DNA of 64,000 nucleotides from assembly GCA_045648785.1 (NCBI GenBank), contig JAZROP010000020.1, positions 2,968 to 66,967 of the forward strand, in the 5' to 3' direction. The stretch comes from Clostridia bacterium. GTDB taxonomy: Bacteria; Bacillota; Clostridia; RUG12999. The position numbers were made by a program, and so were the translations under genes. The notes under the pieces are model-generated. The model ran no database searches, had not been told where the DNA came from, and was given only the letters and a program-made list of their open reading frames with translations. Below are positions 10,563 to 62,737 of this stretch, piece by piece (positions within the stretch are counted from its first letter, which is position 1; the number at the start of each line of letters is the position of its first letter).

Positions 10563-10639
10563 GGGCGCATAGCTCAGCTGGTCAGAGTGCTTGCTTGACA
10601 TGCAAGAGGTCACAGGTTCGAGCCCTGTTGTGCCCACCA
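10563..10639 (+). tRNA. tRNA-Val (anticodon GAC), CCA encoded
   Basis: A cloverleaf folds by hand. The acceptor stem is GGGCGCA/TGTGCCC with one G-T wobble. The D-arm is AGCTCAGCTGGTCAGAGT. The anticodon stem cttgc/gcaag carries the loop ttGACat. The T-arm is GGTTCGAGCCC, the discriminator is A, and CCA follows. Confidence 0.85.
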
Positions 10640-11635: not shown

Positions 11636-11716
11636 AGCACTTTTTGACAAAAGTGCTTTTTTGTTTGACACAGGTATGTATATATTGTATAATTACTTGT
11701 GGAGGATTGATGAAAA

Positions 11717-13150
11717 ATGGTGAAACTTAAAGGATTAAAACCAGAGAAGGTTTTTGAATATTTTGAAGAAATATCTGCCGTTCCGAGAGGGTCTGGCAAT
11801 ATGAAACAAATAGCGGATTATTGTATGTCTTTTGCGAATAAAAACGCCCTAAAAGCGGTTCGGGATAATGCGGATAATGTTGTTATTTATAAGCCTGCAA
11901 CAAAAGGTTTTGAAAATGCTGATCCTGTAATTTTACAGGGGCATCTTGATATGGTCTGCCAAAAGGAAGCAGGTCGCGACATAGATTTTGAAAAAGACGG
12001 ACTTGAAATATATATCGATGGCGACTATATAAAAGCAAAAGGGACAACATTAGGTGCGGATAACGGAATTGCGGCGGCAATGATTCTTTCGATACTTGCG
12101 AGCAATGATATTAAACACCCGCCGATAGAAGCACTTTTTACAACAGATGAAGAAATCGGTATGATTGGGGCATCACAGCTTGACGGCTCTTTGTTCAGGG
12201 GTAAGCAGTTGATAAATCTTGATTCAGAGGAGCAGGATAAGTTGACCGTTTCTTGTGCAGGAGGAAGTGAATTTGAGATAAATATACCCATTGACCGAAA
12301 AAAGATAAGAGGCAGGAAAGTTACTTTCTCGCTGACGGGACTTAAAGGCGGTCATTCTGGAATAGAAATTGATAAGGGCAGAATTAATGCGGCTGTCCTT
12401 TCGGGAAGATTTTTGAATGAAATTGGGGATTGTGAGATAATTTCAATTACAGGCGGTGACAAGAGCAATGCAATAACTAACGCCTGTGAGGTTGAACTTG
12501 TGTGTTCAGACGCTGAAAAAACAGTTTCAGAAATTAAAAGTTGTTATGAAATTGTTAAAAAAGAAATTGCAGAAACAGAGCCGAATTTTGAGGTTTCGGT
12601 AATGACGGGTGAAGAATGTGAATTTGAGGTTGTTGATGGGACTGCAAAAGAAAAGCTTATATTTGCGCTTCTTTTTATGCCTAACGGTGTTCAGTCTATG
12701 AGTGCAAGTATTGCCGGGCTTGTTGAAACCTCGCTAAATCTCGGGATTTTAAAGACAGAGGCCGATAAAATTGTTATGGTTTCGGCACTCAGGAGCAATA
12801 AACAGTCTGCACTTGAATATCTTGAGAGAAAGCTGAAAACTTTTGCAAAATCGCTTGGATGCAATGTTAAAACCTATGGACATTATCCGCCGTGGGAATA
12901 TAAGGAAAATTCGGCACTTCAGGAAATTTATAAAAAATGTTTCAAAGAAAAGTTTGGTTATCTTCCGACAGTTGAAGCTATACATGCGGGACTTGAATGC
13001 GGAACTCTTTCGGCCAAAATAAAAGACCTGGACGCAATTTCAGTTGGACCTGATCTTTCTGATGTTCATACCACAAAGGAGAAACTGAAGATATCATCGG
13101 CGAGGGAAATGTATGAACTGATATGTGAACTACTTGGCAAAATGAAATAA
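11717..13150 (+). CDS. pepD: aminoacyl-histidine (Xaa-His) dipeptidase, M20C
   Basis: The product is 477 aa with the motifs HLDMV, DNGIAAAM and TTDEEIGMIGA, which match PepD-family dipeptidases. Confidence 0.85.
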   Translation: MVKLKGLKPEKVFEYFEEISAVPRGSGNMKQIADYCMSFANKNALKAVRDNADNVVIYKPATKGFENADPVILQGHLDMVCQKEAGRDIDFEKDGLEIYIDGDYIKAKGTTLGADNGIAAAMILSILASNDIKHPPIEALFTTDEEIGMIGASQLDGSLFRGKQLINLDSEEQDKLTVSCAGGSEFEINIPIDRKKIRGRKVTFSLTGLKGGHSGIEIDKGRINAAVLSGRFLNEIGDCEIISITGGDKSNAITNACEVELVCSDAEKTVSEIKSCYEIVKKEIAETEPNFEVSVMTGEECEFEVVDGTAKEKLIFALLFMPNGVQSMSASIAGLVETSLNLGILKTEADKIVMVSALRSNKQSALEYLERKLKTFAKSLGCNVKTYGHYPPWEYKENSALQEIYKKCFKEKFGYLPTVEAIHAGLECGTLSAKIKDLDAISVGPDLSDVHTTKEKLKISSAREMYELICELLGKMK

Positions 13151-48000: not shown

Positions 48001-49470
48001 ATGGATAATATTTATAAGGATATTGCACAAAGGACGCAAGGAGATATATACATAGGTGTAGTAGGGCCTGTAAGAACAGGAAAATCAACATTTATAAAAA
48101 GGTTTATGGATACAAAGGTGCTACCTAATATTGACAATAGCTACAAGCGTGACAGGGCAAGGGATGAACTGCCACAAAGTGCTTCTGGAAGAACAATTAT
48201 GACCACAGAGCCAAAGTTTGTTCCAAACGAGGCGGTAAACATCAAAATTAACGACGCAGATTGCAATGTGAGAATGGTGGACTGTGTTGGATATATGGTG
48301 AGAGGTGCACTGGGCTCTGAGGAGGAAGGAGCTGCCCGTATGGTACAGACCCCTTGGGGGGATGAGCCAATGCCTTTTGATGAGGCAGCAGAAATCGGGA
48401 CTGAAAAGGTTATAAATGACCATTCCACAATAGGTATTGTTGTTACAACCGATGGAAGTATAACGGAAATTCCGAGGGAAAATTATGTTGAGGCAGAGGA
48501 AAGAGTTATAGAGGAACTGAAAAAAATAAATAAACCATTTGCAGTGCTTTTAAACTCAGTTAATCCTGACGGAACACAGGCAAAACAACTGCAGAAAAGT
48601 CTGGAGGAGAAGTATCAGGTTCCTGTTATATGTGTCTCCTGTGCACAGCTTGATGAGAATGATATTGAGTCAATTTTAACTACAGTGCTTTATGAATTTC
48701 CTCTTACTGAAATAGGAATAAATCTGCCAGGTTGGCTGGATGCACTTGAATGGTCTCATCCGCTGAAAAATAACATTTTCACCTCTGTGAGAGATACACT
48801 TACTGATGTGAGAAAAATAAGTGATGCAAAAAAGAAAATATGTCAGCTTAAAGAACTTGAGTATGCTGACGATGTAAAGACACTTAAAACCGACCTTGGC
48901 AGAGGGGTAATTAATATTGAAATATCAACTCCTGAGCCACTGTTTTATGAGGTTTTAAGTAAGACAACCGGTCTTGATATAGCGGATGATGAAAAGCTTA
49001 TGAAACTGCTTATAGAACTTAAGGAAATAAAGAAAAAATATGATAAAATTGAGTATGCATTAAAGGAAGTTGATGCAAAAGGTTACGGAATTGTCTATCC
49101 GTCGATAGACGAGCTAAGACTTGAAGAGCCGGAAATTGTAAAGCAGGGAAGCAGATATGGTGTGCGCCTCCGGGCGGCAGCTCCGTCGCTGCACCTTATA
49201 AAAGCTGAAATAGAAACAGAAGTAAGTCCCATTGTTGGTACAGAAAAACAAAGTGAGGAACTTGTCCATTCACTTGTGGATGAGTTTGAAAATGAACCAC
49301 AGAAGATATGGGAGTCAAATATTTTTGGAAAATCATTGCATGAACTTGTAAATGACGGGCTTCATACTAAGCTTTCGCGTATGCCCGACGAATCCAGGTT
49401 CAAAATTCAGGAAACCTTACAGAAGATTATAAATGAGGGCAGCGGAGGACTTATCTGCATTATATTATAA
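48001..49470 (+). CDS. spoIVA: stage IV sporulation protein A (spore coat morphogenetic ATPase)
   Basis: IYIGVVGPVRTGKSTFIKRFMD is the SpoIVA Walker A N-terminus. The product is 489 aa. Confidence 0.9.
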   Translation: MDNIYKDIAQRTQGDIYIGVVGPVRTGKSTFIKRFMDTKVLPNIDNSYKRDRARDELPQSASGRTIMTTEPKFVPNEAVNIKINDADCNVRMVDCVGYMVRGALGSEEEGAARMVQTPWGDEPMPFDEAAEIGTEKVINDHSTIGIVVTTDGSITEIPRENYVEAEERVIEELKKINKPFAVLLNSVNPDGTQAKQLQKSLEEKYQVPVICVSCAQLDENDIESILTTVLYEFPLTEIGINLPGWLDALEWSHPLKNNIFTSVRDTLTDVRKISDAKKKICQLKELEYADDVKTLKTDLGRGVINIEISTPEPLFYEVLSKTTGLDIADDEKLMKLLIELKEIKKKYDKIEYALKEVDAKGYGIVYPSIDELRLEEPEIVKQGSRYGVRLRAAAPSLHLIKAEIETEVSPIVGTEKQSEELVHSLVDEFENEPQKIWESNIFGKSLHELVNDGLHTKLSRMPDESRFKIQETLQKIINEGSGGLICIIL

Positions 49471-49473
49471 ATT

Positions 49474-49509
49474 AAAAACCCGCAGAAAAACAATTTTCTG
49501 CGGGTTTTT
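49474..49509. terminator. bidirectional intrinsic terminator (spoIVA / pur operon end)
   Basis: aaaaacccgcagaaaa-caa-ttttctgcgggttttt. Confidence 0.75.
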
Positions 49510-49512
49510 AAT

Positions 49513-52500
49513 TTATTTATAATATTTTACTGCCGAGGTGAAGATATTCATTTCATATTCGCCCTCAACATTCTTGTAAAGACCTGAGCCAATACGCTCT
49601 GAATGTCCCATTTTACCAAATACTCTGCCGTCGGGTGAAGTGATGCCTTCGATAGCATAGTCTGAGCCGTTGGGGTTAAAGCGAATATCGGATGTGGGGT
49701 TGCCGTCAAGGTCAACATACTGAGTAGCAACCTGACCATTTTCCGCTAACTTCTTAATGAGTTCTTCCGAAGCAATAAATCTGCCCTCCCCGTGAGAAAT
49801 GGGCACAGTGTAGATTTCGCCAGGCTGAGTCATAGAAAGCCAGGGAGATTTGTTTGATACAACTTTTGTGCGAACAAGTCTTGATTGGTGTCGCCCAATT
49901 ACATTATATGTAAGAGTCGGACAGTTTTCGTCAGTGTCAATGATTTCGCCAAAAGGAACAAGACCAAGCTTTATAAGTGCCTGGAAACCATTACAGATTC
50001 CACACATTAAACCGTCACGGTTTTTGAGAAGGTTGTGAACTTCTTCTTTAACGATAGCGTTGCGGAAGAAAGCTGTGATAAATTTGCCCGAACCATCAGG
50101 CTCGTCACCACCCGAGAAACCTCCCGGAATGAATATCATTTGTGCCTGCTTAACTCTTTCAGCAAAGTATTTTACAGAATTGTCAATACCTGCTGCAGAA
50201 AGGTTGTTGATAACAATAATTTCAGCTTCACCGCCAGCTCTTTCAACTGCCTTTGCCGAATCGTATTCGCAGTTTGTACCCGGGAATACAGGGATAAGTA
50301 CTTTAGGTGTAGCCACTTTTATGGTTGAAACTTGTTTTCCATACGCAGGCTTTGTTAGGTCAGGGATATTTTCCTTGCCGCCCGCTACATTATTGCAGGT
50401 GAAGACTGGTTCAAGCTTGTCTTCATAAATTTTGAGAAGTTCAGCAAGACAGAGGTTTTCTCCGCCCAGGCTAATAGCCGCTTTTTCGGTTGTTTTACCG
50501 AGCAGTGTGCCAACATTTGCATCGCCTGAAAGTTCAAGGATGAACGCGCCGTAGTTATAACCGAAGATTTCTTCTTTTGTAACATCAGCAAATTCAAAAC
50601 CGATGTTGTTACCGAATGCCATCTTCATTACAGCTTCAGCTACGCCGCCAATTCCGGGGGTGTAAGCCGATTTAACCTTGCCTTCGCGAACAAGTTTTGC
50701 AACTGTGTCATAAAGTGCCATTTCCGAATCTGCCACTGGCAGACCGTTTTTGTCATATTCGGGTTTAAGTAAAACTACATTATTTCCTGCCGACTTAAAT
50801 TCTGGGGAGATAATGTTCTTTGTTTTATCTGTTGTAACTGCAAAGGAAACGAGTGTGGGGGGAACATCAATGTTCTCAAAAGAGCCACTCATGGAGTCTT
50901 TGCCGCCGATTGCTGCGATAGAGTAATCCATTTGTGCACAAAAAGCACCAAGGAGAGCTGAAAGCGGTTTACCCCAGCGTTTGCCGTCTTTAAGCGGTTT
51001 TTCAAAATATTCCTGGAAAGTCAGGTAAACATCATTAAAATCCGCACCGGTTGCAATCAGCTTGGAAACAGATTCAACAACTGCAAGATATGCACTGTGA
51101 TAAGGGCTTTTTTCAGCAATAAACGGGTTATAACCCCAAGCCATAAGTGAACAGGTATCTGTGTCACCTTTTTCAAGGGAAACCTTGTTAACCATTGCCT
51201 GAGAGGGGGTAAGCTGATATTTACCACCGAAAGGCATGAGCACAGAGCCTGCTCCGATTGTGGAGTCAAAACGCTCGGAAAGTCCGCGTTTTGAACAGAT
51301 GTTAAGGTCGGATGCAAGTGCTTTCATTCCGTCTGTGAATGAATCAGGGATTTCCTTTGCAAATGACTCAGGAACAGCAGGAGCAATGTCAATATGCTTT
51401 TCAGCACCATTGGAATTTAAAAATTCTCTTGAAATGTTACAGATAGCCTTGCCGTTCCAGTTCATAACAAGACGAGGCTCTGCAGTAACTTTTGCAACGA
51501 TTGTTGCTTCAAGGTTTTCACTGTTTGCAAGCTCTATAAATCTTTCGGCATCCTCGGGAGCAACGGCAACAGCCATTCTTTCCTGAGATTCACTTATAGC
51601 AAGTTCTGTGCCGTCAAGACCGTCATATTTTTTGGGAACTGCATTAAGGTTTATTTCAAGACCGTCAGCAAGCTCGCCGATAGCAACGGACACACCGCCG
51701 GCACCGAAGTCGTTACAGCGTTTTATAAGCTGAGAAGCTTCTTTGTTGCGGAAAAGTCTCTGGAGCTTTCTTTCTTCGGGAGCATTACCTTTTTGAACTT
51801 CTGCACCGCAGGACTCAAGAGATTCGAGTGTGTGGGATTTTGAAGAACCTGTTGCACCGCCGCAGCCGTCACGGCCTGTTCTGCCGCCAAGGAGAATAAT
51901 AACATCTCCGGGAGCAGGTCTTTCTCTGCGAACATTTTCTTGAGGAGCTGCACCTACAACCGCACCAATTTCCATTCTCTTTGCAACATATCCGTCGTGG
52001 TAAATTTCATCTACCTGACCGGTTGCAAGACCAATCTGGTTACCATAAGAACTGTAGCCTGCCGCCGCAGTTGTAACAATTTTTCTCTGGGGAAGTTTAC
52101 CGGGGATTGTTTCTTCAAGCGGCTTTAAGGGGTCTGCCGCGCCCGTTACACGCATAGCACCATATACATAGCTTCTGCCTGAAAGCGGGTCACGGATTGC
52201 ACCGCCGATACAAGTAGCCGCACCACCAAAAGGCTCAATTTCTGTGGGGTGGTTATGAGTTTCGTTTTTGAAAAGCAGCAGCCAATCCTGATCATCGCCA
52301 TCTACATTGACGGTCATTTTAACTGTGCAGGCATTGATTTCTTCAGATTCGTCAAGCTTATCAAGCTTGCCTGTTTTTTTCAGATATTTTGCGGCAATTG
52401 TACCAATATCCATAAGATTTATGGGTTTTGTTCTGCCAATATCCTGACGGGTTTTAATATATCTGTCATATGCGTTTTGAAGAAGCTTATCTTCAAATTT

Positions 52501-53205
52501 AACGCTGTCGATGGTTGTTAAAAATGTTGTGTGACGGCAATGATCCGACCAGTATGTATCAATCATACGAATTTCAGTGATTGTGGGATTACGGTTTTCA
52601 GAAATAAAATACTGCTGGCAGAATTTTATATCGTCAAGATCCATTGCAAGTCCTAAAGTTTTAACAAAATCTGCAAGCTCCTTTTCGTCAAGAGAGGTAA
52701 AGCCGTCAAGTGTTTCAACTGATTCGGGAATTTCATAGCTTGCTTTAAGTGTTGAGAAAGTTTCGAGGGTTGCTTCTCTGCTTTCCACAGGGTTAATAAC
52801 ATATTTTTTTATAGCATCAACATCTTTGGAGGAGAGATTTCCGCTTAAAACAAAAACCTTTGCGGTGCGAACAGTAGGTCTGTCACCACAGGAAATAATC
52901 TGAATACACTGCGAAGCAGAGTCTGCTCTCTGGTCAAACTGACCGGGGAGATATTCTGTTGCAAACACCACTGCTCCGTCCACACTGGGCATTTCTGTTG
53001 AAATAATGTCAAGCTGAGGCTCAGAGAAAACAGCTGTGCAAGCATAATCAAACAAATCTTTTTCAATGTTTTCAACATCATATCTGTTAATTATGCGCAA
53101 GTCGGTCAGTTCTTTTATTCCAAGCAGGGACACAATATCATTTTTTAAAGCTCTTGCTTCGTGAGCAAGCTCTTTTTTCTTTTCTACATAAATTCTATAT
53201 ACCAT
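49513..53205 (-). CDS. purL: phosphoribosylformylglycinamidine synthase, large single-chain form (PurL with fused PurS-like and glutaminase domains)
   Basis: The likely start is MVYRIYVEKKKELA (a PurS-like N-terminus) at 53205. The product is about 1230 aa, with the FGAM synthetase core and a C-terminal class-I GATase (GICNGFQAL, SHGEGR). Confidence 0.9.
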   Translation of the reverse strand: MVYRIYVEKKKELAHEARALKNDIVSLLGIKELTDLRIINRYDVENIEKDLFDYACTAVFSEPQLDIISTEMPSVDGAVVFATEYLPGQFDQRADSASQCIQIISCGDRPTVRTAKVFVLSGNLSSKDVDAIKKYVINPVESREATLETFSTLKASYEIPESVETLDGFTSLDEKELADFVKTLGLAMDLDDIKFCQQYFISENRNPTITEIRMIDTYWSDHCRHTTFLTTIDSVKFEDKLLQNAYDRYIKTRQDIGRTKPINLMDIGTIAAKYLKKTGKLDKLDESEEINACTVKMTVNVDGDDQDWLLLFKNETHNHPTEIEPFGGAATCIGGAIRDPLSGRSYVYGAMRVTGAADPLKPLEETIPGKLPQRKIVTTAAAGYSSYGNQIGLATGQVDEIYHDGYVAKRMEIGAVVGAAPQENVRRERPAPGDVIILLGGRTGRDGCGGATGSSKSHTLESLESCGAEVQKGNAPEERKLQRLFRNKEASQLIKRCNDFGAGGVSVAIGELADGLEINLNAVPKKYDGLDGTELAISESQERMAVAVAPEDAERFIELANSENLEATIVAKVTAEPRLVMNWNGKAICNISREFLNSNGAEKHIDIAPAVPESFAKEIPDSFTDGMKALASDLNICSKRGLSERFDSTIGAGSVLMPFGGKYQLTPSQAMVNKVSLEKGDTDTCSLMAWGYNPFIAEKSPYHSAYLAVVESVSKLIATGADFNDVYLTFQEYFEKPLKDGKRWGKPLSALLGAFCAQMDYSIAAIGGKDSMSGSFENIDVPPTLVSFAVTTDKTKNIISPEFKSAGNNVVLLKPEYDKNGLPVADSEMALYDTVAKLVREGKVKSAYTPGIGGVAEAVMKMAFGNNIGFEFADVTKEEIFGYNYGAFILELSGDANVGTLLGKTTEKAAISLGGENLCLAELLKIYEDKLEPVFTCNNVAGGKENIPDLTKPAYGKQVSTIKVATPKVLIPVFPGTNCEYDSAKAVERAGGEAEIIVINNLSAAGIDNSVKYFAERVKQAQMIFIPGGFSGGDEPDGSGKFITAFFRNAIVKEEVHNLLKNRDGLMCGICNGFQALIKLGLVPFGEIIDTDENCPTLTYNVIGRHQSRLVRTKVVSNKSPWLSMTQPGEIYTVPISHGEGRFIASEELIKKLAENGQVATQYVDLDGNPTSDIRFNPNGSDYAIEGITSPDGRVFGKMGHSERIGSGLYKNVEGEYEMNIFTSAVKYYK

Positions 53206-53209
53206 AATC

Positions 53210-54475
53210 TTATCCTTTCGCCTTAAGCGCTTTTTGACCAATGTCTTTCCGATAGAATGCATTTTCAAAGGAAACTTTTTTTACTTCGTCATAAGCCTTT
53301 TCTATAGCTTTTTCAAGGCTTTCGGCAGTAGCTGTTACACCTAAAACTCTGCCGCCGCCCGAAAGTAGCTTTTCGCCATCAAGCTTTGCGCCTGCAACAT
53401 AAATTTCCGCCTCTGTTTCGGTGGGGAGAGTAATTTCGTAGCCTGTTTCGTACTTTCCGGGATAGCCGTTTGATGCCATGATGACACAACAAGCAGCACC
53501 GGATGAAAACTCAACCTTTGTATCTGCAAGGGTTTCGTTTTCAACTGCTTTCATAACCTCAAACAGGTCGGACTTTAAGAGTGGGAGAACAACCTGAGTT
53601 TCAGGGTCACCAAAACGACAGTTGTATTCAATAACCTTAGGACCGTTTGGGGTGAGCATAAGTCCGAAGTAGAGGCAGCCTTTAAAGGTTCTGCCCTCGG
53701 CGTTCATTGCGTTGATTGTAGGAAGAAAAATCTTTTCCATACATTCATTTGCAATAGCGTCGGTGTAATAGGGGTTGGGAGCAACCGTTCCCATGCCACC
53801 AGTGTTGAGTCCTTCGTCATTATCAAGTGCGCGTTTGTGGTCCATTGAGGAAATCATAGGAACAACAGTTTTACCGTCAGTAAACGATAAAACAGAAACC
53901 TCGGGACCTGTCAAAAATTCTTCTATAACGATTCTCGAACCGCTTTCACCAAAAACCTTGTCCTCCATCATGGATATAACCGCTGATTTGGCATCTTCTC
54001 TTGTTTCGGCAATGATAACGCCTTTGCCCAGCGCAAGTCCATCAGCTTTGATGACTGTGGGGATGGGTGCTGTTTCTAGATAAGAAAGAGCTTCGTTTTT
54101 ATCAGTAAAAATCTGATACTCTGCGGTAGGAATACCATATTTTTTCATAAGATTTTTTGAAAAAACCTTACTGCCTTCAATCTCAGCTGCCGCTTTTGAT
54201 GGACCAAAACAGGGGATACCTATTTCGCGTAGCCTGTCTGTTGCACCAAGAACAAGCGGGTCATCGGGAGCAACAACCGCAAATTTAATATCATTGTTTT
54301 TCGCAAAATCTACAATTCCGTCAATATCTTTTGCACCGATGCCGGTACAAATGGCGTCGGCGGCTATACCGCCGTTGCCAGGAAGAGCGTAAATTTCTGT
54401 AATTTCAGAACTTTTTTTAAGTGATTTTATAATAGCATGCTCGCGACCGCCGCCGCCCACAACCATTATTTTCAT
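53210..54475 (-). CDS. purD: phosphoribosylamine-glycine ligase
   Basis: The internal start MKIMVVGGGGREHAI follows a GGAGGAAT RBS. The ATP-grasp fold is present. Confidence 0.9.
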   Translation of the reverse strand: MKIMVVGGGGREHAIIKSLKKSSEITEIYALPGNGGIAADAICTGIGAKDIDGIVDFAKNNDIKFAVVAPDDPLVLGATDRLREIGIPCFGPSKAAAEIEGSKVFSKNLMKKYGIPTAEYQIFTDKNEALSYLETAPIPTVIKADGLALGKGVIIAETREDAKSAVISMMEDKVFGESGSRIVIEEFLTGPEVSVLSFTDGKTVVPMISSMDHKRALDNDEGLNTGGMGTVAPNPYYTDAIANECMEKIFLPTINAMNAEGRTFKGCLYFGLMLTPNGPKVIEYNCRFGDPETQVVLPLLKSDLFEVMKAVENETLADTKVEFSSGAACCVIMASNGYPGKYETGYEITLPTETEAEIYVAGAKLDGEKLLSGGGRVLGVTATAESLEKAIEKAYDEVKKVSFENAFYRKDIGQKALKAKG

Positions 54476-54491
54476 AGGTAATTCCTCCTGA

Positions 54492-55733
54492 TTATTCGTA
54501 GATGGGGAACTTTTCGCAAAGCTCAATTACTTCTTTTGTAACCTGGTCTTTTGTAGCTTCAAAATCGGAAGCAACCAGCTTAATCCAATGAGCAATTTTC
54601 TTCATTTCTTCTTCCTTGAAACCACGGGAAGTAACCGCAGGAGTACCTATACGGACACCACTTGTTACGAATGGGCTTTCGGGGTCATTGGGAATTGTAT
54701 TTTTGTTTGCTGTAATATGAACTTCATCAAGACGATGTTCCATTTCTTTGCCTGTGATGCCAAAAGGACGAAGGTCAAGAAGCATCAGATGATTGTCTGT
54801 GCCACCGGATACAATATCGAATCCTTCTCTAATAAATTCCTCGGATAAAACTTTAGCATTTTTAATAATCTGTTTCTGATATTCTTTGAATTCGTCAGTT
54901 AATGCTTCGCCGAAAGCAACTGCTTTAGCGGCAATAATATGCATAAGAGGTCCGCCTTGAATTCCGGGGAATATAGCTTTGTCAATCTGTTTTGCATATT
55001 CTTCTTTACAAAGGATAAGACCACCTCTGGGACCGCGCAGAGTTTTATGAGTTGTTGTTGTTACAACATCTGCATAGGGAACAGGAGATGGATGGAGTCC
55101 TGCGGCAACAAGACCGGCAATGTGAGCAATGTCAACCATCATGATTGCGCCAACTTCGTCACAGATTTCACGAATTTTTGCAAAGTCAATAGTTCTTGCA
55201 TAAGCACTTGCGCCCGAGACAATCATTTTGGGTTTACATTCAAGTGCGATTTCACGCATTTTATCATAGTCAATTCTGCCTGTTTCATCATCAACGCCGT
55301 AAGGAACGATGTTGAAATATTTACCTGAAATATTGACAGGGCTGCCGTGAGAAAGGTGACCACCGTGAGCGAGATTCATACCCATAACGGTATCGCCCGG
55401 CTGAAGGAAAGCAAAGAATACTGCAAGGTTAGCATTAGCACCGCTGTGAGGCTGAACATTCGCATGTTCAGCACCGAACAGCTTTTTAGCTCTTTCTCTT
55501 GCAATTTCTTCAACTTCATCAACATGGATACAACCGCCGTAATAGCGTTTGCCCGGATAGCCTTCTGCATATTTGTTTGTCAGAACACCGCCGGCAGCAA
55601 GAAGTACTGCTTCTGATACAATGTTTTCGGAAGCTATAAGTTCAATGTTATGTTTCTGACGGGAAAGTTCTCTGTCGCAAGCAGCAAAAACTTCACTGTC
55701 ATAATTTTTAAGCTGGTCAAAAAATTTACTCAT
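54492..55733 (-). CDS. glyA: serine hydroxymethyltransferase
   Basis: It has LIASENIVS and [14 protein letters not shown], the PLP-lysine region. The product is 413 aa. Confidence 0.9.
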
Positions 55734-55752: not shown

Positions 55753-56940
55753 TTAATGATGAAACAATCTCATGTGTGTGAATGCCATTGATATGCCAAG
55801 CTTGTTGCAAGCGTCAATTACAAGCTGGTCACGAATGGAGCCACCCGGCTGTGCGATGTATGTTACGCCACTTTTTGCAGCTCGTTCAATATTATCACTG
55901 AATGGGAAGAAAGCATCTGAACCTAATGCAACATCCTTAATGCTATTAAGGTAAGCATCCTTTTCTTCTTTAGTGAAAGGCTCAGGCTGAACCTTAAAGA
56001 ACTGCTGCCAGTTGCCGTCTGCCAGTACATGGTCCGCATCAAAATCGGAAATGTAAAGGTCAATACAGTTATCTCTGTCAGGTCTGCCAATTTCATCAAG
56101 GAAAGGTAGATTTAAAACTTTGTCGTGCTGACGGAGATGCCAGTTATCAGCTTTCTGTCCGGCAAGTCTTGTACAGTGAATTCGTGACTGCTGACCTGCA
56201 CCTACGCCGATTGCCTGACCGTCTGCAGCAAAGCATACAGAGTTAGACTGAGTATATTTAAGTGTGATAAGTGCAACTATAAGGTTTCTGATTGCACTTT
56301 CGGGGAGTTCTTTATTTTCTGTAACAATTTCTGTAAGCAGTTCGCGGTTTATTTCAAAATCGTTTCTGCCCTGTTCAAATGTGATTCCGAAAACCTGTTT
56401 GCGTTCAATGGGATCAGGAATATAATTTTCGTCTATTTTTACAATGTTGTATGTGCCTTTTCTTTTGCTTTTTAAAATTTCAAGAGCCTCATCTGTATAT
56501 CCGGGAGCGATAACACCATCGGAAACCTCTCTTGCAATAAGAGAAGCGGTTACCTTGTCACACTCGTCAGATAAAGCAATCCAGTCACCGAAAGAACTCA
56601 TTCTGTCAGTACCCCTTGCACGGGCATAGGCCAGAGCGAGAGGAGAAGAATCAAGGTCTGCAATATCATCAACAAAGCAGGCTTTCTTGAGTTTATCGCT
56701 CATTGGCAGGCCGAGTGCCGCGGAAGTAGGACTTACATGTTTAAATGATGTAGCACATGGAATACCGAGCGCTGCTTTTAAATCACGAACGAGTAGCCAG
56801 CTGTTAAATGCATCAAGAAAGTTGATGTATCCGGGTTTGCCATTTAAGATTTCAACCGGCAGGTCGCTTCCGTCGTGCATATAAATTCTTGAGGGTTTCT
56901 GATTGGGATTACAACCGTATTTAAGTTCAAAAGAGTTCAT
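55753..56940 (-). CDS. purH: AICAR transformylase-only PurH (no MGS-like IMP cyclohydrolase domain)
   Basis: The product is 395 aa and corresponds only to the AICARFT domain of bifunctional PurH (FKHVSPTSAALG, DAFFPFSD, IAQPGGSIRD). The N-terminal ~200-aa IMPCH/MGS domain is absent. Confidence 0.8.
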   Translation of the reverse strand: MNSFELKYGCNPNQKPSRIYMHDGSDLPVEILNGKPGYINFLDAFNSWLLVRDLKAALGIPCATSFKHVSPTSAALGLPMSDKLKKACFVDDIADLDSSPLALAYARARGTDRMSSFGDWIALSDECDKVTASLIAREVSDGVIAPGYTDEALEILKSKRKGTYNIVKIDENYIPDPIERKQVFGITFEQGRNDFEINRELLTEIVTENKELPESAIRNLIVALITLKYTQSNSVCFAADGQAIGVGAGQQSRIHCTRLAGQKADNWHLRQHDKVLNLPFLDEIGRPDRDNCIDLYISDFDADHVLADGNWQQFFKVQPEPFTKEEKDAYLNSIKDVALGSDAFFPFSDNIERAAKSGVTYIAQPGGSIRDQLVIDACNKLGISMAFTHMRLFHH

Positions 56941-57671
56941 TATCGAAGTCCTCCTTCATGTTTATTTACTATTCTTGTGTCAATTTTACCTGTTTTAAGG
57001 TTTGTGAAACGGACAAACATAGAAATTTTATTGTTTTCATCAAGAGCTTCCCAAACTTTTTTTGTAAGCTCATCAATATCGTTTGGAAGAGAAATTCTCT
57101 CGGGTTCGCCTGTGAAGGTGGGAAGAGGATTTCCATCACAGTTATAAGTATGAATAAAATGACCTACTCCTGCGATTGCTGGATAAGTAAAGGTGTATCT
57201 GCTGCAAGCTGTGCCCTCAGCGTCTGCACTTTTTAAAATATTCATTTTATAAGTAAAATCATTATTTACAAACTCAAGCATACCGCTGATTCTGGGTGTG
57301 AAGTTGGGCGCATCAGGCTCAAATTCGCGAGTATCAAGTGCCGCCTCAAAGCTTTCACCTTTAGCAAGATGGTCATAAACTGTATCAGTTTGGTCGCCGT
57401 TTGTTACGATTAGTTTGTTTTCAAATTTTCTCACAGGAGAATAAATGATAAGCGAAGGGTCAGAAACCTTGCTTTCATCAAAAGGATAAATGGTGATATC
57501 TTCACCGTTTACTTTAAAAACTCTGTTCCTTGAGTTTTCGCTTCTGCCCATGATAAAGTAGATAGCAACTGCATTTTCACCGTCGGCAGTTTTGCCAATT
57601 GCAATACCTCTGCCTGGATATGTATTGTCTTTTAACAAGTCTAAAAGACAATATGTCTGATATACATTCAT
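56940..57671 (-). CDS. purO: PurO-type (archaeal-like, PF07826) IMP cyclohydrolase
   Basis: From the internal Met (MNVYQTY...), the motifs YPGRGIAIGKT...IVTNGDQTD parallel PurO YLGRILAVGRN...VVSNGSHTD. The ATG overlaps the purN stop in an ATGA arrangement, and the stop overlaps the purH ATG. Confidence 0.7.
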   Translation of the reverse strand: MNVYQTYCLLDLLKDNTYPGRGIAIGKTADGENAVAIYFIMGRSENSRNRVFKVNGEDITIYPFDESKVSDPSLIIYSPVRKFENKLIVTNGDQTDTVYDHLAKGESFEAALDTREFEPDAPNFTPRISGMLEFVNNDFTYKMNILKSADAEGTACSRYTFTYPAIAGVGHFIHTYNCDGNPLPTFTGEPERISLPNDIDELTKKVWEALDENNKISMFVRFTNLKTGKIDTRIVNKHEGGLR

Positions 57672-58270
57672 TTTTTCTTCTCCTTTACAATCTGTTTTGA
57701 TACAAGCTCGCATGCTTTGGGTAGTATAATCCATTCAGCCTGCTGCATAACGCGTTTCTGCAAGGTTTCAGGAGTATCTTTTGGACGGATTTTAACAGCT
57801 TTTTGTGCAATGATTTTTCCTCCGTCAGGAATTTCGTTTACAAAATGAACGGTTGCACCCGTAACCTTAACGCCGTATTTAAGTGCTTCTTCATGAACTT
57901 TAAGTCCATAATACCCTTTTCCGCAGAAAGAGGGGATAAGTGCCGGATGAACATTAATGATACGATTTGCAAAACGGGAGGTAAATTTCTTGGAGAGAAT
58001 TTTCATAAATCCCGCAAGAACAATCAAATCAATTTTTTCATCTTCTAATTTTTTTATAAGTTTATCCTCAAAATCAGGAGCCTTGGACGGAATAACCGCG
58101 GTGGCAATGTCGGCATTTTTTGCACGGGTGAGAGCATAGGCTTCCGGATTGCCCGAAAGGACAAGGGAAATTTCACCGCTTTTTATAACGCCGCTTTTTT
58201 GAGCATCTATCATTGCCTGCAGATTAGTTCCTCCACCCGAAACGAGGACTGCAATTTTTGCTTTCATCAT
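57668..58270 (-). CDS. purN: phosphoribosylglycinamide formyltransferase
   Basis: [15 protein letters not shown] is the GART N-terminus, and a formyl-transferase fold follows. Confidence 0.85.
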
Positions 58271-59301
58271 ATAATAACTCCTGCATCGCCTTTAACGATT
58301 TCTCCAATGATGTAAGCGTCTTCACCTGCAGATTTAAGAATTTCGAGAGATTTTGCCGCATCCTCTGCCGAAACAACAATGCTCATGCCAACGCCCATAT
58401 TAAAGGTGTTGAACATATCGCGCTCAGGAATGTTTCCACGCTTTGCAATAAGGTCGAAAATGGGAAGGATTTTAAGGGCAGATTTATCAATCTTAGCGGA
58501 ATAGCCGTCCGGCAGACTGCGCGGAATATTTTCGTAAAAGCCTCCGCCAGTGATGTGAGAAATTGCCTTAACTCTAACTTCGTCTAAAAGTGCAAGTACA
58601 GGTTTTACATAAATTTTTGTAGGAGTGAGAAGTGTTTCTCCAATGGATTTGCCGCCAAGCTCAGCGAGAGGACTGGTGATGTCGCCATTTTCAACATCAA
58701 GCACTTTTCTTACAAGAGAAAAACCATTTGAGTGAACACCGGACGAGGGAAGTGCAATTATAACATCACCCTCTGTTACAGTGGAGTTATCTAAAATTTT
58801 ATCTTTGTCAACCACGCCCGTGGAATAACCTGCAAGGTCATATTCGTTTTCAGGATAAAATCCGGGCATTTCAGCAGTTTCACCACCGATTAAAGCTGCA
58901 CCTGCCTGAACACAGCCCTCAGCTACACCAGATACGATTGCAGCAACTCTTTCGGGACAGTTTTTACCCACTGCTATGTAGTCAAGGAAAAAGAGAGGTT
59001 TTGCACCGCTGCAGATAATATCGTTAACGCACATTGCAACGCAGTCGATACCTACGGTATCATGCTTGTCCATTTTAAATGCTATTTTAAGTTTTGTACC
59101 AACGCCGTCAGTACCGCTTACAAGAACAGGTTTATTTATTCCTTCAAGGTCAAGCTCAAACAGACCGCCAAAACCGCCTATTCCGCTTAAAACCCCGGGA
59201 GTAACAGTTCTTGCAATATGGGTTTTCATAAGCTCAACTGCTTTGTAGCCGGCAGTAATGTCAACCCCGGCATTTTTATAACTTTCGCTAAAACTTTTCA
59301 T
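58267..59301 (-). CDS. purM: phosphoribosylformylglycinamidine cyclo-ligase (AIR synthetase)
   Basis: SYKNAGVDI...GIGGFGG is the PurM signature. Confidence 0.9.
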
Positions 59302-59331: not shown

Positions 59332-60777
59332 TTATTCTTTACCATTCCAACAATAAGTGCAAAGCTGACTTTCGTCAAGACCTATTGACTTTATAATGCC
59401 TTCCAATGATTGGAATTCCAATGATGCAAATTTGAGTTTTTCGCAAATTCTTTTTCTTAAGTTTTTTCCACGCTCTGTTGCAGAGTCGCTGTATTCGCTG
59501 ATGTAATTTAGTCCATCTTCACCCTCAAGCTCTACGATAATTTGGCGAGCGATAAGCTCCATTTCGCTTGTGGCACGAGAAAAATTGAGATATTTGCAAG
59601 CATACATTATGGGAGGACATGCAGAACGCATGTGCACCGATTTTGCTCCGTTTTCATAAAGAAAATCAACAGTTCCTTTAAGTTGGGTTCCCCGAACAAT
59701 GGAATCATCAACGAAAAGAAGATTTTTATCCTGAATAAGCTCGTGTACAGGGATTTGTTTCATTCTTGCAACCTTTGTTCTTTCCTTCTGACTTGCAGGA
59801 GTAAAGCTTCTCATCCAGGTTGGAGTATATTTGATGAAAGGTCTTGCAAAAGGAATTTTGCTTTCGTTAGCATATCCGATTGCGTGGGGGGTTCCCGAAT
59901 CGGGTACGCCACCGACATAATCAACATTTTCTGCGTTGCCTACCTTTTTATCGTGCTCTGCCATAATCTGACCGTTGCGGTATCTCATTGCCTCAACATT
60001 AATGCCTTCATAACAGGAAGTGGGATAACCATAGTAGCTCCACAAAAAAGCACATATTTTCATTTTATCTCCCGGAGGATTAAGTTGAGTAACGCCATCA
60101 AGAGTTATTTCAACAATTTCACCCGGGCCGAGTTCTTTTTCTAATTCATAACCAAGCTTCTGATACGCAAACGACTCAAAAGAAACGCAGTAGCCGCTTT
60201 CTTTTTTGCCGATTAAAATAGGAAGTCTGCCAAGACGGTCTCTTGCAGCAATAAGGGTTCCGTCGTTTTTTAGTATCAGGATTGAGGCAGATCCGTCAAT
60301 AACGCTCTGTGCAAATTTAATTCCATCAACGAAGCTCGATTTCTGGTTAATAAGTGCGGCAACAAGGTCGGTGGAATTTATTTTGCCACCTGTCATTGTG
60401 CCAAAATGACCGCCGGATGAAATATATTTTTCAATCAGTTCTTCGGCATTGTTGATCATGCCGATGGTTGTAATGGCATAAATGCCAACATTTGAACGGA
60501 TTAAAAGAGGTTGCGGGTCAGTATCGCTTATACAGCCGATAGCTGATTTGCCGCGCATTTCCTCGAAAATGTGTTCAAACTTAGTTCTGAAAGGAGAGTT
60601 TTCGATGTTGTGTATATCTCTTTGCAGACCAATTTCAGGGTCATAAGCTGCCATACCGCCCCTGCGTGTACCCAGGTGAGAATGATAGTCTGTACCAAAA
60701 AAAACATCTGAAATTGCATCCTCTTTACATATTGCTCCAAAAAAGCCGCCCATAAATTTCTGTACCTTTCTGCCCAC
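59332..60777 (-). CDS. purF: amidophosphoribosyltransferase-like protein (PRTase domain intact; N-terminal glutaminase domain atypical)
   Basis: The C-terminal PRTase motifs are present (GVPDSG, LLFVDDSIVRGTQ). The N-terminal region aligns to the PurF Ntn domain (FFGTDYHSHLGTRRGGMA vs YYGLHSLQHRGQEGAGIV), but the residue aligned to the Cys1 nucleophile is Gly (MGGFFGAI vs CGVFGIWG). The alternative internal start is at 60753. Confidence 0.8.
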   Translation of the reverse strand: MGRKVQKFMGGFFGAICKEDAISDVFFGTDYHSHLGTRRGGMAAYDPEIGLQRDIHNIENSPFRTKFEHIFEEMRGKSAIGCISDTDPQPLLIRSNVGIYAITTIGMINNAEELIEKYISSGGHFGTMTGGKINSTDLVAALINQKSSFVDGIKFAQSVIDGSASILILKNDGTLIAARDRLGRLPILIGKKESGYCVSFESFAYQKLGYELEKELGPGEIVEITLDGVTQLNPPGDKMKICAFLWSYYGYPTSCYEGINVEAMRYRNGQIMAEHDKKVGNAENVDYVGGVPDSGTPHAIGYANESKIPFARPFIKYTPTWMRSFTPASQKERTKVARMKQIPVHELIQDKNLLFVDDSIVRGTQLKGTVDFLYENGAKSVHMRSACPPIMYACKYLNFSRATSEMELIARQIIVELEGEDGLNYISEYSDSATERGKNLRKRICEKLKFASLEFQSLEGIIKSIGLDESQLCTYCWNGKE

Positions 60778-60842: not shown

Positions 60843-61337
60843 TTAATTGTTGTATTTTTGCGAAACAGTTGAGTCTGCATCAAGAACTTTTGAAGCTGCC
60901 AATTTTCTTTGAGCATCAAGCTTTGCAGCCAGAGCTGAATCGGAAACTGAAAGAATTTGCATTGCGAGAAGTGCTGCGTTTACAGCACCATCAATTGCAA
61001 CTGTGGCAACAGGAATTCCTGATGGCATCTGAACAGTTGATAAAAGAGCATCCAGTCCGTCAAGAGTAGATGATTTAACAGGCAAACCTATAACAGGCAG
61101 CGTTGTACAAGCCGCTACCGCACCTGCAAGATGAGCCGCCTTACCTGCGGCAGCTATGATAACACCAAAATCGTTTGCTCTGGCGTTTTCTGTAAATTCG
61201 CGAACCTGCTGCGGAGTACGATGAGCCGAATATACATGAACCTCACAGGGAACTGAAAAATCTTTTAAAGTATTAATAGCTTTTTCAACAATGGGTAAGT
61301 CGCTGTCGCTACCCATGAGAATACCAACTTTTTTCAT
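60843..61337 (-). CDS. purE: phosphoribosylaminoimidazole carboxylase catalytic subunit / class-II PurE type (no purK present)
   Basis: The internal start MKKVGILMGSDSDLPIVEKA is the PurE signature. It is the first gene after the leader. Confidence 0.85.
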   Translation of the reverse strand: MKKVGILMGSDSDLPIVEKAINTLKDFSVPCEVHVYSAHRTPQQVREFTENARANDFGVIIAAAGKAAHLAGAVAACTTLPVIGLPVKSSTLDGLDALLSTVQMPSGIPVATVAIDGAVNAALLAMQILSVSDSALAAKLDAQRKLAASKVLDADSTVSQKYNN

Positions 61338-61364: not shown

Positions 61365-61400
61365 AAAAAGGGCAGACCTATACTGCTATAGATCTGCCCA
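61365..61400 (-). terminator. leader intrinsic terminator (riboswitch expression platform) upstream of purE
   Basis: On the minus strand, gggcagatctatag-cag-tataggtctgccc is followed by UUUUU. The 5' arm overlaps the 3' pseudoknot strand of the aptamer. Confidence 0.6.
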
Positions 61401-61466
61401 GACGGTCGACATTTTTATATTTTTTGCTCCCCGGCAGTTACAATCTGCCAAATCCGTCAGTTGCAA
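61394..61466 (-). promoter_or_regulatory. ZTP (pfl-motif) riboswitch aptamer in the pur operon leader
   Basis: The minus-strand RNA reads uugcaa-CUGACGG-[P2 hairpin ggcag-auuguaa-cugcc]-GGGGAGCaa-(19-nt linker)-CCGUCUGGGCAG. Against the pfl consensus GACUGGCG...P2...GGGGAGCG...CCGCCUGGGCA, the pseudoknot pair GACGG/CCGUC covaries with consensus GGCG/CGCC. Confidence 0.65.
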
Positions 61467-61493
61467 AAAACAGTAAAATATTATTATAAGTAT

Positions 61494-61522
61494 AGTATAT
61501 AAGAAAAAGAGAATAATGTCAA
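61494..61522 (-). promoter_or_regulatory. sigma-A promoter of the pur operon
   Basis: On the minus strand, TTGACA, a 17-nt spacer, then TATACT, about 30 nt upstream of the aptamer. Confidence 0.5.
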
Positions 61523-61626: not shown

Positions 61627-62547
61627 TTAGTCTGCATTAATGGAAAGCAGGTCGAAAATTTCTGCTGTTACATAAGTTTTGGAATCAACAATTACAGGGA
61701 AGTTTTCTTCTTTCTGACCTTCGAACATTGCTTCACCAATTTTTATTCTTACAATGTTTTTTGTTTTGCCCGCAATATCAATGCTCCAGTCAGCATCGTT
61801 CCAGTTTACTGTGTAACCGAGAGTTTCCAGAACATGTCGGAGAGGAAGTCTACGAGCGGAAGCATCGTCAAAAAGTGCAGAGTCAGCATATTCAAAGGTG
61901 TGCTCACCAACTACAACTTCATTTTCGTTTTTTACTTCTTCTGCAAGAGAAAGAACTGCAATTTTTTCAGCAGGAACATGAGCAGGGAGGCTCATACCTA
62001 CAACTGATGAAAATGCAACAATTTCAGAACCGGGAGTAATATCTGAAGCTTTCAGTGCAATTCTGATTTTGTGTGCGATTACAGGAGTTTCGTCTGTGTA
62101 AACGATTTTGTTATTACCATCTTTTGAGAAAATCTCGCCCTTTTCATTTGTATCCACAACTGCATAAATGGGAGCAGAAGAGGATTTTTCTGTATTTACA
62201 AACACATAATATGCATATGCCTGAGGGGGAAGACTTCTTGTTGTCATAGAACTTGCTACAACTGTTACAGCATCGTCTTTTTTAATTGTTTCAACAGGGT
62301 TTAAGTCGTAATCGCAGATGTAAGTATTCTCGTCCATATTGAACTGAAATTCTTTTTCGCCGATAACAATGGAGCCTTCATTTACTTCAGTTACAACACC
62401 GTTGTAAGAAATTTTTGTGTCTGCTACTTCAACTTTTTCTTCTGCTTCAGAAATGAGCATGATGTCATTTTTTACAGTTTCAGTTGCATAAGCAGCTGGG
62501 ATGAGTGCGAGCATAGCCGCGAGTGATAAAGAAATAAATTTTTTCAT
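61627..62547 (-). CDS. secreted protein with C-terminal copper-amine-oxidase-like N-terminal domain (Cu_amine_oxidN1)
   Basis: The internal start MKKFISLSLAAMLALIPAAYA is a signal peptide after a GGAGAAT RBS. The C-terminal VLETLGYTVNWNDADWSIDIAG...KTYVTAEIFDLL matches the PF07833 stalk domain common in Clostridia. Confidence 0.55.
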   Translation of the reverse strand: MKKFISLSLAAMLALIPAAYATETVKNDIMLISEAEEKVEVADTKISYNGVVTEVNEGSIVIGEKEFQFNMDENTYICDYDLNPVETIKKDDAVTVVASSMTTRSLPPQAYAYYVFVNTEKSSSAPIYAVVDTNEKGEIFSKDGNNKIVYTDETPVIAHKIRIALKASDITPGSEIVAFSSVVGMSLPAHVPAEKIAVLSLAEEVKNENEVVVGEHTFEYADSALFDDASARRLPLRHVLETLGYTVNWNDADWSIDIAGKTKNIVRIKIGEAMFEGQKEENFPVIVDSKTYVTAEIFDLLSINAD

Positions 62548-62737
62548 TTTTCTATTCTCCTTTTTTGTTTTTCTGTATGTAATACTTGCCGGAATGGCAA
62601 AAGGTTGCATGGAGTTAAAAAATTTTTTAAGTTTGACAAAGAATTTACTGTATGCTATAATTAAAAACTGGAATTACATATATTATTGTATATTTTTTGT
62701 CCGGATAAATCAAGTACTAAAAACGGAGAGTTGAGCC

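Follow-up and report, generated by a model that had tools for sequence, protein, structure and literature searches.

The window, by which we mean the whole 64-kb stretch of DNA that was analysed, carries on its minus strand a nine-gene purine operon spanning 12 kb, with the gene order purE-purF'-purM-purN-purO-purV-glyA-purD-purL. A candidate promoter and a candidate riboswitch leader lie ahead of purE, and a palindromic hairpin closes the operon after purL (Table 1).

Table 1. Features of the purine operon and its flanks, in the direction of transcription of the operon, with the matches on which each assignment is based.
Feature	Position	Strand	Basis
Promoter-like site, TTGACA-17-TATACT	61494..61522	-	consensus match, 11/12 positions
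Candidate ZMP/ZTP riboswitch aptamer (pfl motif, RF01750), operon leader	61389..61474	-	Rfam 62.4 bits
Predicted intrinsic terminator hairpin and T-run, riboswitch expression platform	61370..61399	-	13-bp stem
purE (N5-CAIR mutase)	60843..61337	-	PF00731 208 bits
purF-like amidophosphoribosyltransferase paralogue (purF'), without N-terminal Cys nucleophile	59332..60753	-	TIGR01134 171.7 bits
purM (AIR synthetase)	58267..59301	-	PF00586 and PF02769 matches
purN (GAR formyltransferase)	57668..58270	-	TIGR00639 197.1 bits, cutoff 150.1
purO-like IMP cyclohydrolase, bacterial clade of PF07826, 243 aa	56940..57671	-	PF07826 211.7 bits
purV, AICAR formyltransferase-only PurH, 395 aa	55753..56940	-	NF005492 664.9 bits, cutoff 415
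glyA (serine hydroxymethyltransferase)	54492..55733	-	PF00464 594 bits; NF000586 660 bits
purD (GAR synthetase)	53210..54526	-	GARS_N, GARS_A and GARS_C matches
purL, large single-chain FGAM synthase	49513..53268	-	TIGR01857 1864.5 bits, cutoff 1057
Palindromic bidirectional terminator hairpin, operon end	49468..49515	.	20-bp stem, T-runs on both sides

The PurE protein also exceeded the TIGR01162 cutoff (194.7 bits against 149.6), and its start codon reads as the ATG at 61337. The GARS_N match opens at residue 18 of the purD ORF and the true start of this gene is likely to be the ATG at 54475; that of purL is likely to lie near 53205. The gene in the purF position falls short of the TIGR01134 cutoff of 350 bits and its alignment to that model starts only at residue 81; from there on its identity with E. 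coli PurF is 29%; comparison of the N-termini shows that it reads MGGFFG and that the catalytic Cys1 is absent. This Cys1-less paralogue in the purF slot, and the eukaryote-like AICAR formyltransferase (AICARFT) domain described below, are perhaps better leads for future work than the purO-purV pair itself. Of the 80 related loci (approximately 1.2 Mb in total) that made up our synteny sample, just 6 have glyA in the slot after purV; the glyA product would act in the operon as a source of one-carbon units. Queries for purC, purB, fhs and a formate-transporter-like gene, taken from the related loci, found no match in the 64-kb window, so these genes must be located elsewhere in the genome; with purC and purB at a distance, the pur genes are not all within the operon.

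The terminator hairpin of the upstream gene (61615-61587) stands just ahead of the promoter-like site, which is the top-scoring site of its kind in the region and, from its match to the consensus, is likely to be the operon promoter. The leader matches the RF01750 model along its full length (E 9.7e-08; gathering score 39). Its terminator has the 13-bp stem GGGCAGATCTATAGCAGTATAGGTCTGCCC, followed by TTTTT, and the hairpin shares its 5' arm (61399-61389) with the conserved 3' end of the aptamer; in pfl RNAs this overlap of aptamer and terminator is the design of an ON switch (PMC2864571). Such a riboswitch would turn the operon on when ZMP builds up, that is, when 10-formyl-tetrahydrofolate (10-formyl-THF) is limiting. 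The same RNA was detected upstream of purO-containing operons in 6 of the 7 related loci scanned with Rfam and is also kept in the relatives' loci where purO is paired with fhs and purC, not with purV. At the other end of the operon the terminator hairpin overlaps the stop codon of purL and lies 3' of a convergent ORF (48001-49470) as well.

The purO gene had been described in the original prediction as encoding a 244-residue protein joined to both of its neighbours by overlapping codons. The ORF and the overlaps are as described but the product has 243 residues, codon 244 being the stop; the two segments quoted as its core, YPGRGIAIGKT and IVTNGDQTD, are both present in the translation. The TGA of purN (57670-57668) and the ATG of purO (57671-57669) overlap as ATGA, while the TAA of purO (56942-56940) and the ATG of purV (56940-56938) have one base in common, in the sequence TAATG. 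Shine-Dalgarno-like sequences, AAGGAG and AGGAGG, are found 8-9 nt before the purO and purV ATGs, within the preceding genes. A longer purO ORF from 57734 (264 aa) was rejected, as 67 nt of it would lie within purN; we prefer the start at 57671 because the homologues are 238-244 aa in length and because a Shine-Dalgarno site is present there. The purV gene cannot be extended in frame at its N-terminal end, since its ATG is the first start after an in-frame stop. With stop and start codons that overlap and Shine-Dalgarno sites inside the preceding genes, translation of purN, purO and purV is probably coupled in the window, to judge from this geometry; most relatives are without the overlaps. 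Overlap or a zero gap was seen in 6 of the 72 relatives in which the junction could be measured, and most had a spacer of 10-14 nt. The start/stop overlap is a trait of the window's lineage only.

Domain searches bore out the proposal that purV encodes the AICARFT part of PurH alone. The 395-residue protein matched PF01808 (E 2.2e-54) over model positions 77-311 only and gave no match to PF02142, the MGS domain; the NCBIfam equivalog NF005492, 'phosphoribosylaminoimidazolecarboxamide formyltransferase', matched it from residue 1 to residue 395. Its affinities are with the eukaryotic enzyme: eukaryotic ATIC structures align with it over their residues ~204-605 and score 451-462 bits, far above the 80-89 bits obtained with solved bacterial PurH structures, and it is 53% identical to Cryptococcus ATIC. 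No residue differs between PurV and ATIC in the segment SFKHVSP or in the C-terminal MRLFHH, and PurV carries the catalytic Lys-His pair and the C-terminal Arg of AICARFT (K267/H268 and R589 in the human protein, as listed in PMC3261824). The equivalent of human R208 is a Lys, within the motif LKYG.

The partner of PurV had been called an archaeal-type PurO, and of this description the family assignment stands while the archaeal link is overstated. PF07826 was matched across positions 1-189 of its 192 (E 9.4e-63; cutoff 28.1 bits), and a phmmer search of the PDB with the purO product returned 2ntk and 1kuu at E 1e-5. The scores of the two proteins with PF07826, PF01808 and NF005492 far exceed what chance would give. 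The AlphaFold (AF2) model of the protein has a pLDDT of 96.8 and a pTM of 0.93, and its top three Foldseek matches are all entries for the PurO of Methanothermobacter thermautotrophicus (2ntm, 2ntk and 1kuu), at E 3-5e-13, probability 1.00 and TM 0.63-0.77 over ~230 aligned columns; the next-best match was a proteasome subunit at 6.7e-3. The model thus predicts the four-layer alpha-beta-beta-alpha Ntn-hydrolase-like fold of MTH1020. Against the archaeal equivalogs TIGR01922 and NF003167, the protein scored 49.5 and 59 bits, in alignments confined to residues 18-133, when the cutoffs are 158.35 and 150. We have filed it with the bacterial clade and not with the archaeal equivalog because these cutoffs were not reached; judged from its sequence it belongs to a separate bacterial clade, in agreement with Cruz et al. 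(PMC6486802).

Recent horizontal acquisition of purO from Archaea is scarcely credible on these data. Besides the missed equivalog cutoffs, identity to M. thermautotrophicus PurO is just 19-21%, and the GC content of the operon (0.405-0.448) is near that of the remaining window (0.35-0.43). Relatives of the gene are carried by at least 562 species-level genomes, nearly all of them Clostridia, and in the representative library they form 2753 clusters at 50% identity (E <= 1e-3), of which the best 150 are mostly of bacterial length (~230-250 aa). The tree of Cruz et al. also parts the archaeal PurOs cleanly from the bacterial ones (PMC6486802).

The window PurO is identical to its archaeal counterpart at the positions aligned to Y2/G4/R5, R25/S26, N29/R30, Y59 and N73/G74 of the M. 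thermautotrophicus (Mth) protein, and likewise at the equivalents of T77/D78, E104, D106 and T110/P111/R112. Across 55 members of the family, with 36-59% identity to the window protein, most of the aligned residues are at least 90% conserved, N49/R50 and E118 among them; D96 is present in 44 of the 55. The equivalent of the catalytic Arg is R50 in the HMMER alignment and R48 in that made with MAFFT, and the equivalent of the Glu is E118. Kang et al. (2007) reportedly mutated R31 and E102 as catalytic residues of M. jannaschii PurO, which we take to correspond to R50 and E118 here (Mth R30 and E104 by alignment). The tyrosines Y18 and Y77, equivalent to Mth Y2 and Y59, are conserved. Mth Tyr56 is replaced, its place being taken by Ser73 or Leu74, and Mth Ser24 and Asn54 are replaced too. 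Tyr56, which does not vary in Archaea, belongs to a set of 14 active-site residues (PMC6486802), and a tyrosine is among the three side chains proposed to be catalytic in PurO (PMC6797443). Divergent archaeal PurOs (32-35% identity) can still complement an E. coli strain that is without the IMP cyclohydrolase (IMPCH) domain (PMC6797443).

Gene order ties PurO to PurV well beyond the window. Of the 80 related loci, 69 have purV after purO, and 9 of the remaining 11 lie on contigs that break off before a full-length purV; purB stands between the two genes in 10 loci. The dominant order is purE-F-M-N-O-V-D-L, and adjacent purO and purV in operons of the form purE-F-M-N-O-V-(glyA)-D-L were found in dozens of Clostridia genomes. 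PurN-PurO fusion proteins occur in the representative library (P0145, P0206 and P0181). One 666-residue protein (P0141) that had been considered a PurO-PurV fusion was rejected as such, being a fusion of PurO to PurD. For each of PurO and PurV we counted at least 8000 clusters at 90% identity.

Given the domain, fold, residue, synteny and fusion evidence, the proposal that purO and purV together replace bifunctional PurH, with steps 9 and 10 of the pathway split between them, is well supported and very probably correct. PurV would pass the formyl group of 10-formyl-THF onto AICAR (ZMP) to give FAICAR, and the PurO-family protein would cyclise FAICAR to IMP; these activities are predicted for both proteins. 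The Ntn-hydrolase-like fold of PurO and the MGS-like IMPCH domain of PurH are not related to each other. The IMPCH domain of E. coli PurH, used as a query, found nothing in the window (tblastn, E <= 10) and nothing in the 80 related loci (E <= 1e-3), and we expect purH to be absent from the rest of the genome also.

Were a full-length purH or a stand-alone IMPCH (purJ) at work elsewhere in the genome, the pair would be redundant, and PurO and PurV would be back-up or condition-specific isozymes. There are rare bacterial genomes in which purH accompanies purO (3 OTUs) or both purV and purO (1 OTU, compared with 19 that have purV and purO; PMC6486802), and the distant location of purC and purB shows that pur genes can lie outside this operon. 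We nevertheless regard redundancy as highly improbable: in dozens of genomes the pair occupies the position of purH in the main pur operon, after purN and before purD; the IMPCH domain was not found in the window or in the ~1.2 Mb of related loci; and purV and purO are anticorrelated with purH over 1266 bacterial genomes (PMC6486802).

It is also very unlikely that the bacterial PF07826 protein has some other role in the ZMP/one-carbon regulon, for example as a different amide or imidazole-ribotide hydrolase or as a non-catalytic partner of PurV, with FAICAR being cyclised by an unidentified enzyme or non-enzymatically. Such a role would fit the replacement of the archaeal invariant Tyr56, the ~40 residues by which the protein exceeds archaeal PurO in length, and its scores below the archaeal equivalog cutoffs. 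In two of the related loci (L010 and L018) the genes linked with purO are fhs, purC and one resembling a formate transporter, in place of purV, and our search of the literature found no report of an assayed bacterial PurO and no biochemical data on any bacterial member. Yet throughout the bacterial clade there is hardly any variation in the proposed catalytic Arg and Glu or in the motifs that bind phosphate and ribose, and the PurO fold is matched along the whole length of the predicted structure. A place next to purV and the fusion proteins with PurN or PurD suit an enzyme of the purine pathway, and even the company of fhs, purC and the ZTP riboswitch is that of purine and formyl-THF metabolism. 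Step 10 requires some enzyme, and no alternative candidate was seen in either the window or the 80 loci.

If PurO is the cyclohydrolase, as we believe, it may work in a somewhat different way from its archaeal relatives. The absence of Tyr56, the ~40 additional residues, the eukaryote-like PurV that is almost always encoded directly downstream and the ZTP regulon leave room for a modified catalytic mechanism, or for a complex in which PurO, bound to PurV, draws the unfavourable AICARFT equilibrium towards product. We put this forward tentatively and think it rather unlikely; such a complex, if real, would mean that bifunctional PurH had been re-created convergently with an unrelated fold.

The original prediction was right to see a non-canonical split pair in a bacterial pur operon but the arrangement is neither rare nor new. 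It is already known, common and routinely annotated: Cruz et al. described it in 2019 (Genome Biol Evol 11:1235; PMC6486802), in bacterial purV/purO pairs that replace purH, and the relatives of the window proteins number thousands of clusters. The names used by NCBI for the pair are 'IMP cyclohydrolase' and 'phosphoribosylaminoimidazolecarboxamide formyltransferase', and most sources apply the former to PurO relatives. The purO-purV pair is the normal finish to IMP synthesis in a large part of the gut and rumen Clostridia. In metabolic reconstructions of uncultured gut Clostridia, a missing IMPCH half of PurH should not be equated with incomplete purine synthesis. PurO is unrelated to the cyclohydrolase domain of human ATIC and is therefore in principle a taxon-selective target, a point already noted by Cruz et al. 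(PMC6486802).

The closest known systems are the purV/purO pairs of that survey, which included 22 bacterial purO genes and found 10 of the 14 active-site positions to be identical (PMC6486802). Those pairs also combine an AICARFT-only PurV with a PurO homologue, in Firmicutes/Clostridia and in a purN/purD context, and their active sites are conserved in the same way, Tyr56 being replaced there too. Nothing essential separates the window from them; it adds the overlapping stop and start codons, glyA after purV and the ZTP riboswitch leader. The pfl regulon, for its part, is known for an aptamer with an overlapping terminator before purine and formyl-THF genes such as purH, glyA, fhs and folD (PMC2864571), whereas here the element stands at the head of an operon of nine genes for de novo purine synthesis, where the function of purH is divided between purO and purV.

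Archaeal PurO, as in M. jannaschii (MJ0626), M. thermautotrophicus (MTH1020; PDB 1KUU/2NTK) and Thermococcus kodakarensis (TK0430), shares with the window protein its Pfam family, the Ntn-hydrolase-like fold (TM up to 0.77), the predicted conversion of FAICAR to IMP and the motifs YxGR, RS, NR, NG..TD, E.D and TPR. It differs in being shorter, in retaining Ser24, Asn54 and Tyr56 and in its low sequence identity, and the partner of the window protein is a folate-dependent PurV in a bacterial operon, not PurP. In Halobacteria a folate-dependent AICARFT-only domain is likewise paired with PurO, in close association with purN (Brown et al. 2011; PMC3261824). There a fusion joins purN and purH1, and purO usually lies apart from them, whereas the window has three separate, adjacent genes; some of its bacterial relatives do have PurN-PurO fusions. 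The bifunctional PurH/ATIC of E. coli, humans and fungi carries out the same two reactions, and PurV is homologous to its C-terminal AICARFT domain, but in the window the N-terminal MGS-like IMPCH domain is replaced by an unrelated fold from a separate gene.

The compact purine operon on the minus strand of the window (49.5-61.5 kb) contains the two genes, purO and purV, that the original prediction took for an archaeal-type IMP cyclohydrolase gene and a purH reduced to its formyltransferase (AICARFT) portion. Both open reading frames were confirmed, purV at the 395 aa proposed and purO at 243 aa, the earlier figure of 244 having included the stop codon. The proposed overlaps can be read in the sequence: the purN stop overlaps the purO start and one base is common to the purO stop and the purV start. 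AAGGAG and AGGAGG precede the purO and purV start codons by 8-9 nt. The hairpin at the far end of the operon separates purL from a convergent open reading frame. The gene upstream of the operon, which is followed by a terminator of its own, encodes a protein that has a signal-peptide-like N-terminus and found no match in an NCBIfam search.

Features of the purine operon and its surroundings (window positions)
Feature	Position	Strand	Remarks
Gene upstream of operon	61627-62610	-	327 aa
Terminator of that gene	61615-61587		
Promoter-like site	61522-61494	-	11/12 positions match; precedes riboswitch
ZMP/ZTP riboswitch (RF01750)	61389-61474	-	Rfam, full-length, 62.4 bits (gathering score 39)
Terminator hairpin	61399-61370	-	13 bp + T-run; 5' arm overlaps conserved 3' end of aptamer
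purF slot	59332-60753	-	PurF paralogue
ATGA junction	57671-57669; 57670-57668	-	purO ATG; purN stop TGA
purO	56940-57671	-	PurO-like protein
TAATG junction	56940	-	base common to purO TAA and purV ATG
purV	55753-56940	-	AICARFT-only PurH
glyA	54492-55733	-	serine hydroxymethyltransferase; between purV and purD
Likely bidirectional terminator	49468-49515		perfect 20-bp palindromic hairpin, T-runs on both sides
ORF convergent with purL	48001-49470		
tRNA gene	10563-10636	+	RF00005, 68.3 bits; unrelated to purO/purV

Profile searches bore out the domain reading of both proteins. The PurO-like protein matched nearly the whole of PF07826 (IMP_cyclohyd; 211.7 bits, E 9.4e-63), but it scored below the cutoffs of the archaeal equivalogs TIGR01922 (49.5 bits vs 158) and NF003167 (59 vs 150), aligning to them only over residues 18-133, and so it is assigned by these scores to the PurO superfamily and not to the archaeal equivalog. 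PurV matched PF01808 at model positions 77-311 only, gave no MGS match, and matched over residues 1-395 the dedicated NCBIfam equivalog for the short PurH form, NF005492 'phosphoribosylaminoimidazolecarboxamide formyltransferase' (664.9 bits vs a cutoff of 415). A rival cyclohydrolase was sought by tblastn with residues 1-200 of E. coli PurH, the IMPCH domain: there was no match in the 64-kb window at E <= 10 or across 80 related loci from other genomes at E <= 1e-3, while the AICARFT half matched purV everywhere. Cruz et al. found purH, purV and purO together in only one bacterial genome, compared with 19 that have purV/purO (PMC6486802).

Among PDB sequences phmmer found only Methanothermobacter thermautotrophicus (Mth) PurO (2NTK, 1KUU; E about 1e-5), through the N-terminal half. 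An alignment of 55 family members sharing 36-59% identity with the window protein gave an AlphaFold model with a mean pLDDT of 96.8 and a pTM of 0.93. The model's only strong Foldseek matches in the PDB were the three PurO entries (E 3-5e-13, probability 1.00, TM 0.63-0.77, about 230 aligned columns, 19-21% identity); the next was a proteasome subunit of the same Ntn fold class (6.7e-3). HMMER and MAFFT alignments to the solved enzyme map Mth Y2/G4/R5 to window Y18/G20/R21, R25/S26 to R43/S44, N29/R30 to N49/R50 (HMMER; MAFFT shifts this pair by two residues), Y59 to Y77, N73/G74 to N91/G92, T77/D78 to T95/D96, E104 to E118, D106 to D120 and T110/P111/R112 to T125/P126/R127. Most mapped positions are at least 90% conserved across the bacterial family alignment (n=55), with D96 present in 44/55. 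Work by Kang et al. in 2007 reportedly saw activity lost in MjR31K and MjE102Q, variants of the M. jannaschii enzyme. The catalytic side chains proposed for PurO are one arginine, one glutamate and one tyrosine (PMC6797443). Three Mth residues are replaced in the window protein (S24 by Gly42, N54 by Asp71, and Y56 by Ser73 or Leu74), the same pattern that Cruz et al. describe for bacterial PurOs (PMC6486802).

PurO-like relatives are widespread: a protein search returned at least 8000 clusters, many of which carry the NCBI or JGI name 'IMP cyclohydrolase', an exhaustive search of a representative library gave 2753 clusters (50% identity, E <= 1e-3), and at least 562 species among reference genomes carry one. 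The best 80 of these come almost entirely from uncultured gut or rumen Clostridia (Acutalibacteraceae, Ruminococcus, Lachnospiraceae, Oscillospiraceae, Anaerotignum, Borkfalkia, Christensenellaceae). When their loci were compared by tblastn with the nine operon proteins of the window, purO was followed by purV in 69, most commonly in the order purE-purF-purM-purN-purO-purV-purD-purL; of the 11 exceptions, 9 lie on contigs that stop short of a full-length purV. The other two exceptions, L010 (9131-13235) and L018 (450-4498), have in this order a formate/nitrite-transporter-like gene, purO, formate-tetrahydrofolate ligase (fhs) and purC, with no purV there. Ten (L020, L027, L028, L032, L034, L055, L065, L073, L075, L076) carry between purO and purV, at about 10720-12200, a gene of ~480 aa that is purB, adenylosuccinate lyase, by sequence. 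PurV is 393-395 aa long wherever its frame is complete, except in L034 (287 aa, cut), and no locus leaves room for an MGS domain. The genes overlap or abut in only 6 loci and are separated by a 10-14 nt spacer in 40; thus the tight operon linkage of purO and purV is general, but the start/stop overlap is not. The representative library also holds predicted PurN-PurO fusions (P0145, P0206, P0181; 434-478 aa) and a predicted PurO-PurD fusion (P0141, 666 aa), and their occurrence in several independent clusters argues that such fusions are real and tie PurO to the purine pathway. In another library protein, P0180 (388 aa), a predicted P-loop kinase-like domain is fused to PurO.

The AICARFT step, a reversible one with unfavourable thermodynamics, is driven forward by the irreversible cyclisation. 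Because of this pull, selection would favour co-expression of the two activities, which may be achieved by fusion in PurH and by adjacent, sometimes overlapping, genes in purO/purV. PurV itself shows 53% identity to Cryptococcus ATIC in the AICARFT domain, against only some 26% to E. coli PurH along most of the PurV chain; it scores 451-462 bits against eukaryotic ATIC and 80-89 bits against solved bacterial PurH structures. Since PurV is far closer to the eukaryotic proteins, clostridial PurV and the C-terminal domain of eukaryotic ATIC fall into one subfamily.

The purF slot of the window is occupied by a paralogue that begins MGGFFG..DYHSHLGT, whereas the canonical form is (propeptide)-CG[VI]FG..LQHRGQ, so glycine stands where class-II glutamine amidotransferases have their Ntn cysteine nucleophile. 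It scores 171.7 bits against TIGR01134 (cutoff 350), aligning only from residue 81. The MGGFFG type fills the slot in 18/42 comparable loci and the canonical '...EECGVFG' cysteine form in 24/42, with both side by side in L036 (4552-6000 and 6028-7452). The family numbers at least 8000 clusters, plainly named 'amidophosphoribosyltransferase', and the window paralogue may be a PurF that naturally lacks glutaminase activity and depends on NH3.

The nine-gene purE..purL operon as a whole is headed by a promoter-like site, a ZMP/ZTP riboswitch and an overlapping terminator (61370-61522). The riboswitch lies upstream of the purO-containing operon in six of seven related loci tested (L001, L005, L019, L020, L036, L010), being kept in L010 despite its alternative gene set. 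ZMP is the substrate of PurV, and the operon would therefore be predicted to be induced when AICAR ribotide accumulates from a shortage of 10-formyl-THF. Insertion of glyA after purV, seen in the window and only 6/80 related loci (L001, L019, L049, L065, L073, L078), fits the logic of a ZTP/one-carbon regulon.

Our findings uphold the outline of the split pathway as originally predicted, but the arrangement was already known. It is the 'purV/purO' combination described in 2019 by Cruz et al., who reported it from Clostridia and other bacterial phyla in the context of purN and purD, anticorrelated with purH, with 10/14 PurO active-site positions identical to those of Archaea (PMC6486802). Hoffman and co-workers cite the combination in characterising divergent archaeal PurOs (PMC6797443); our literature search found no experimental work on any bacterial PurO. 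The aptamer and its overlapping terminator share the ON-switch design known from pfl RNAs, a class linked to purH, glyA, fhs and folD (PMC2864571).
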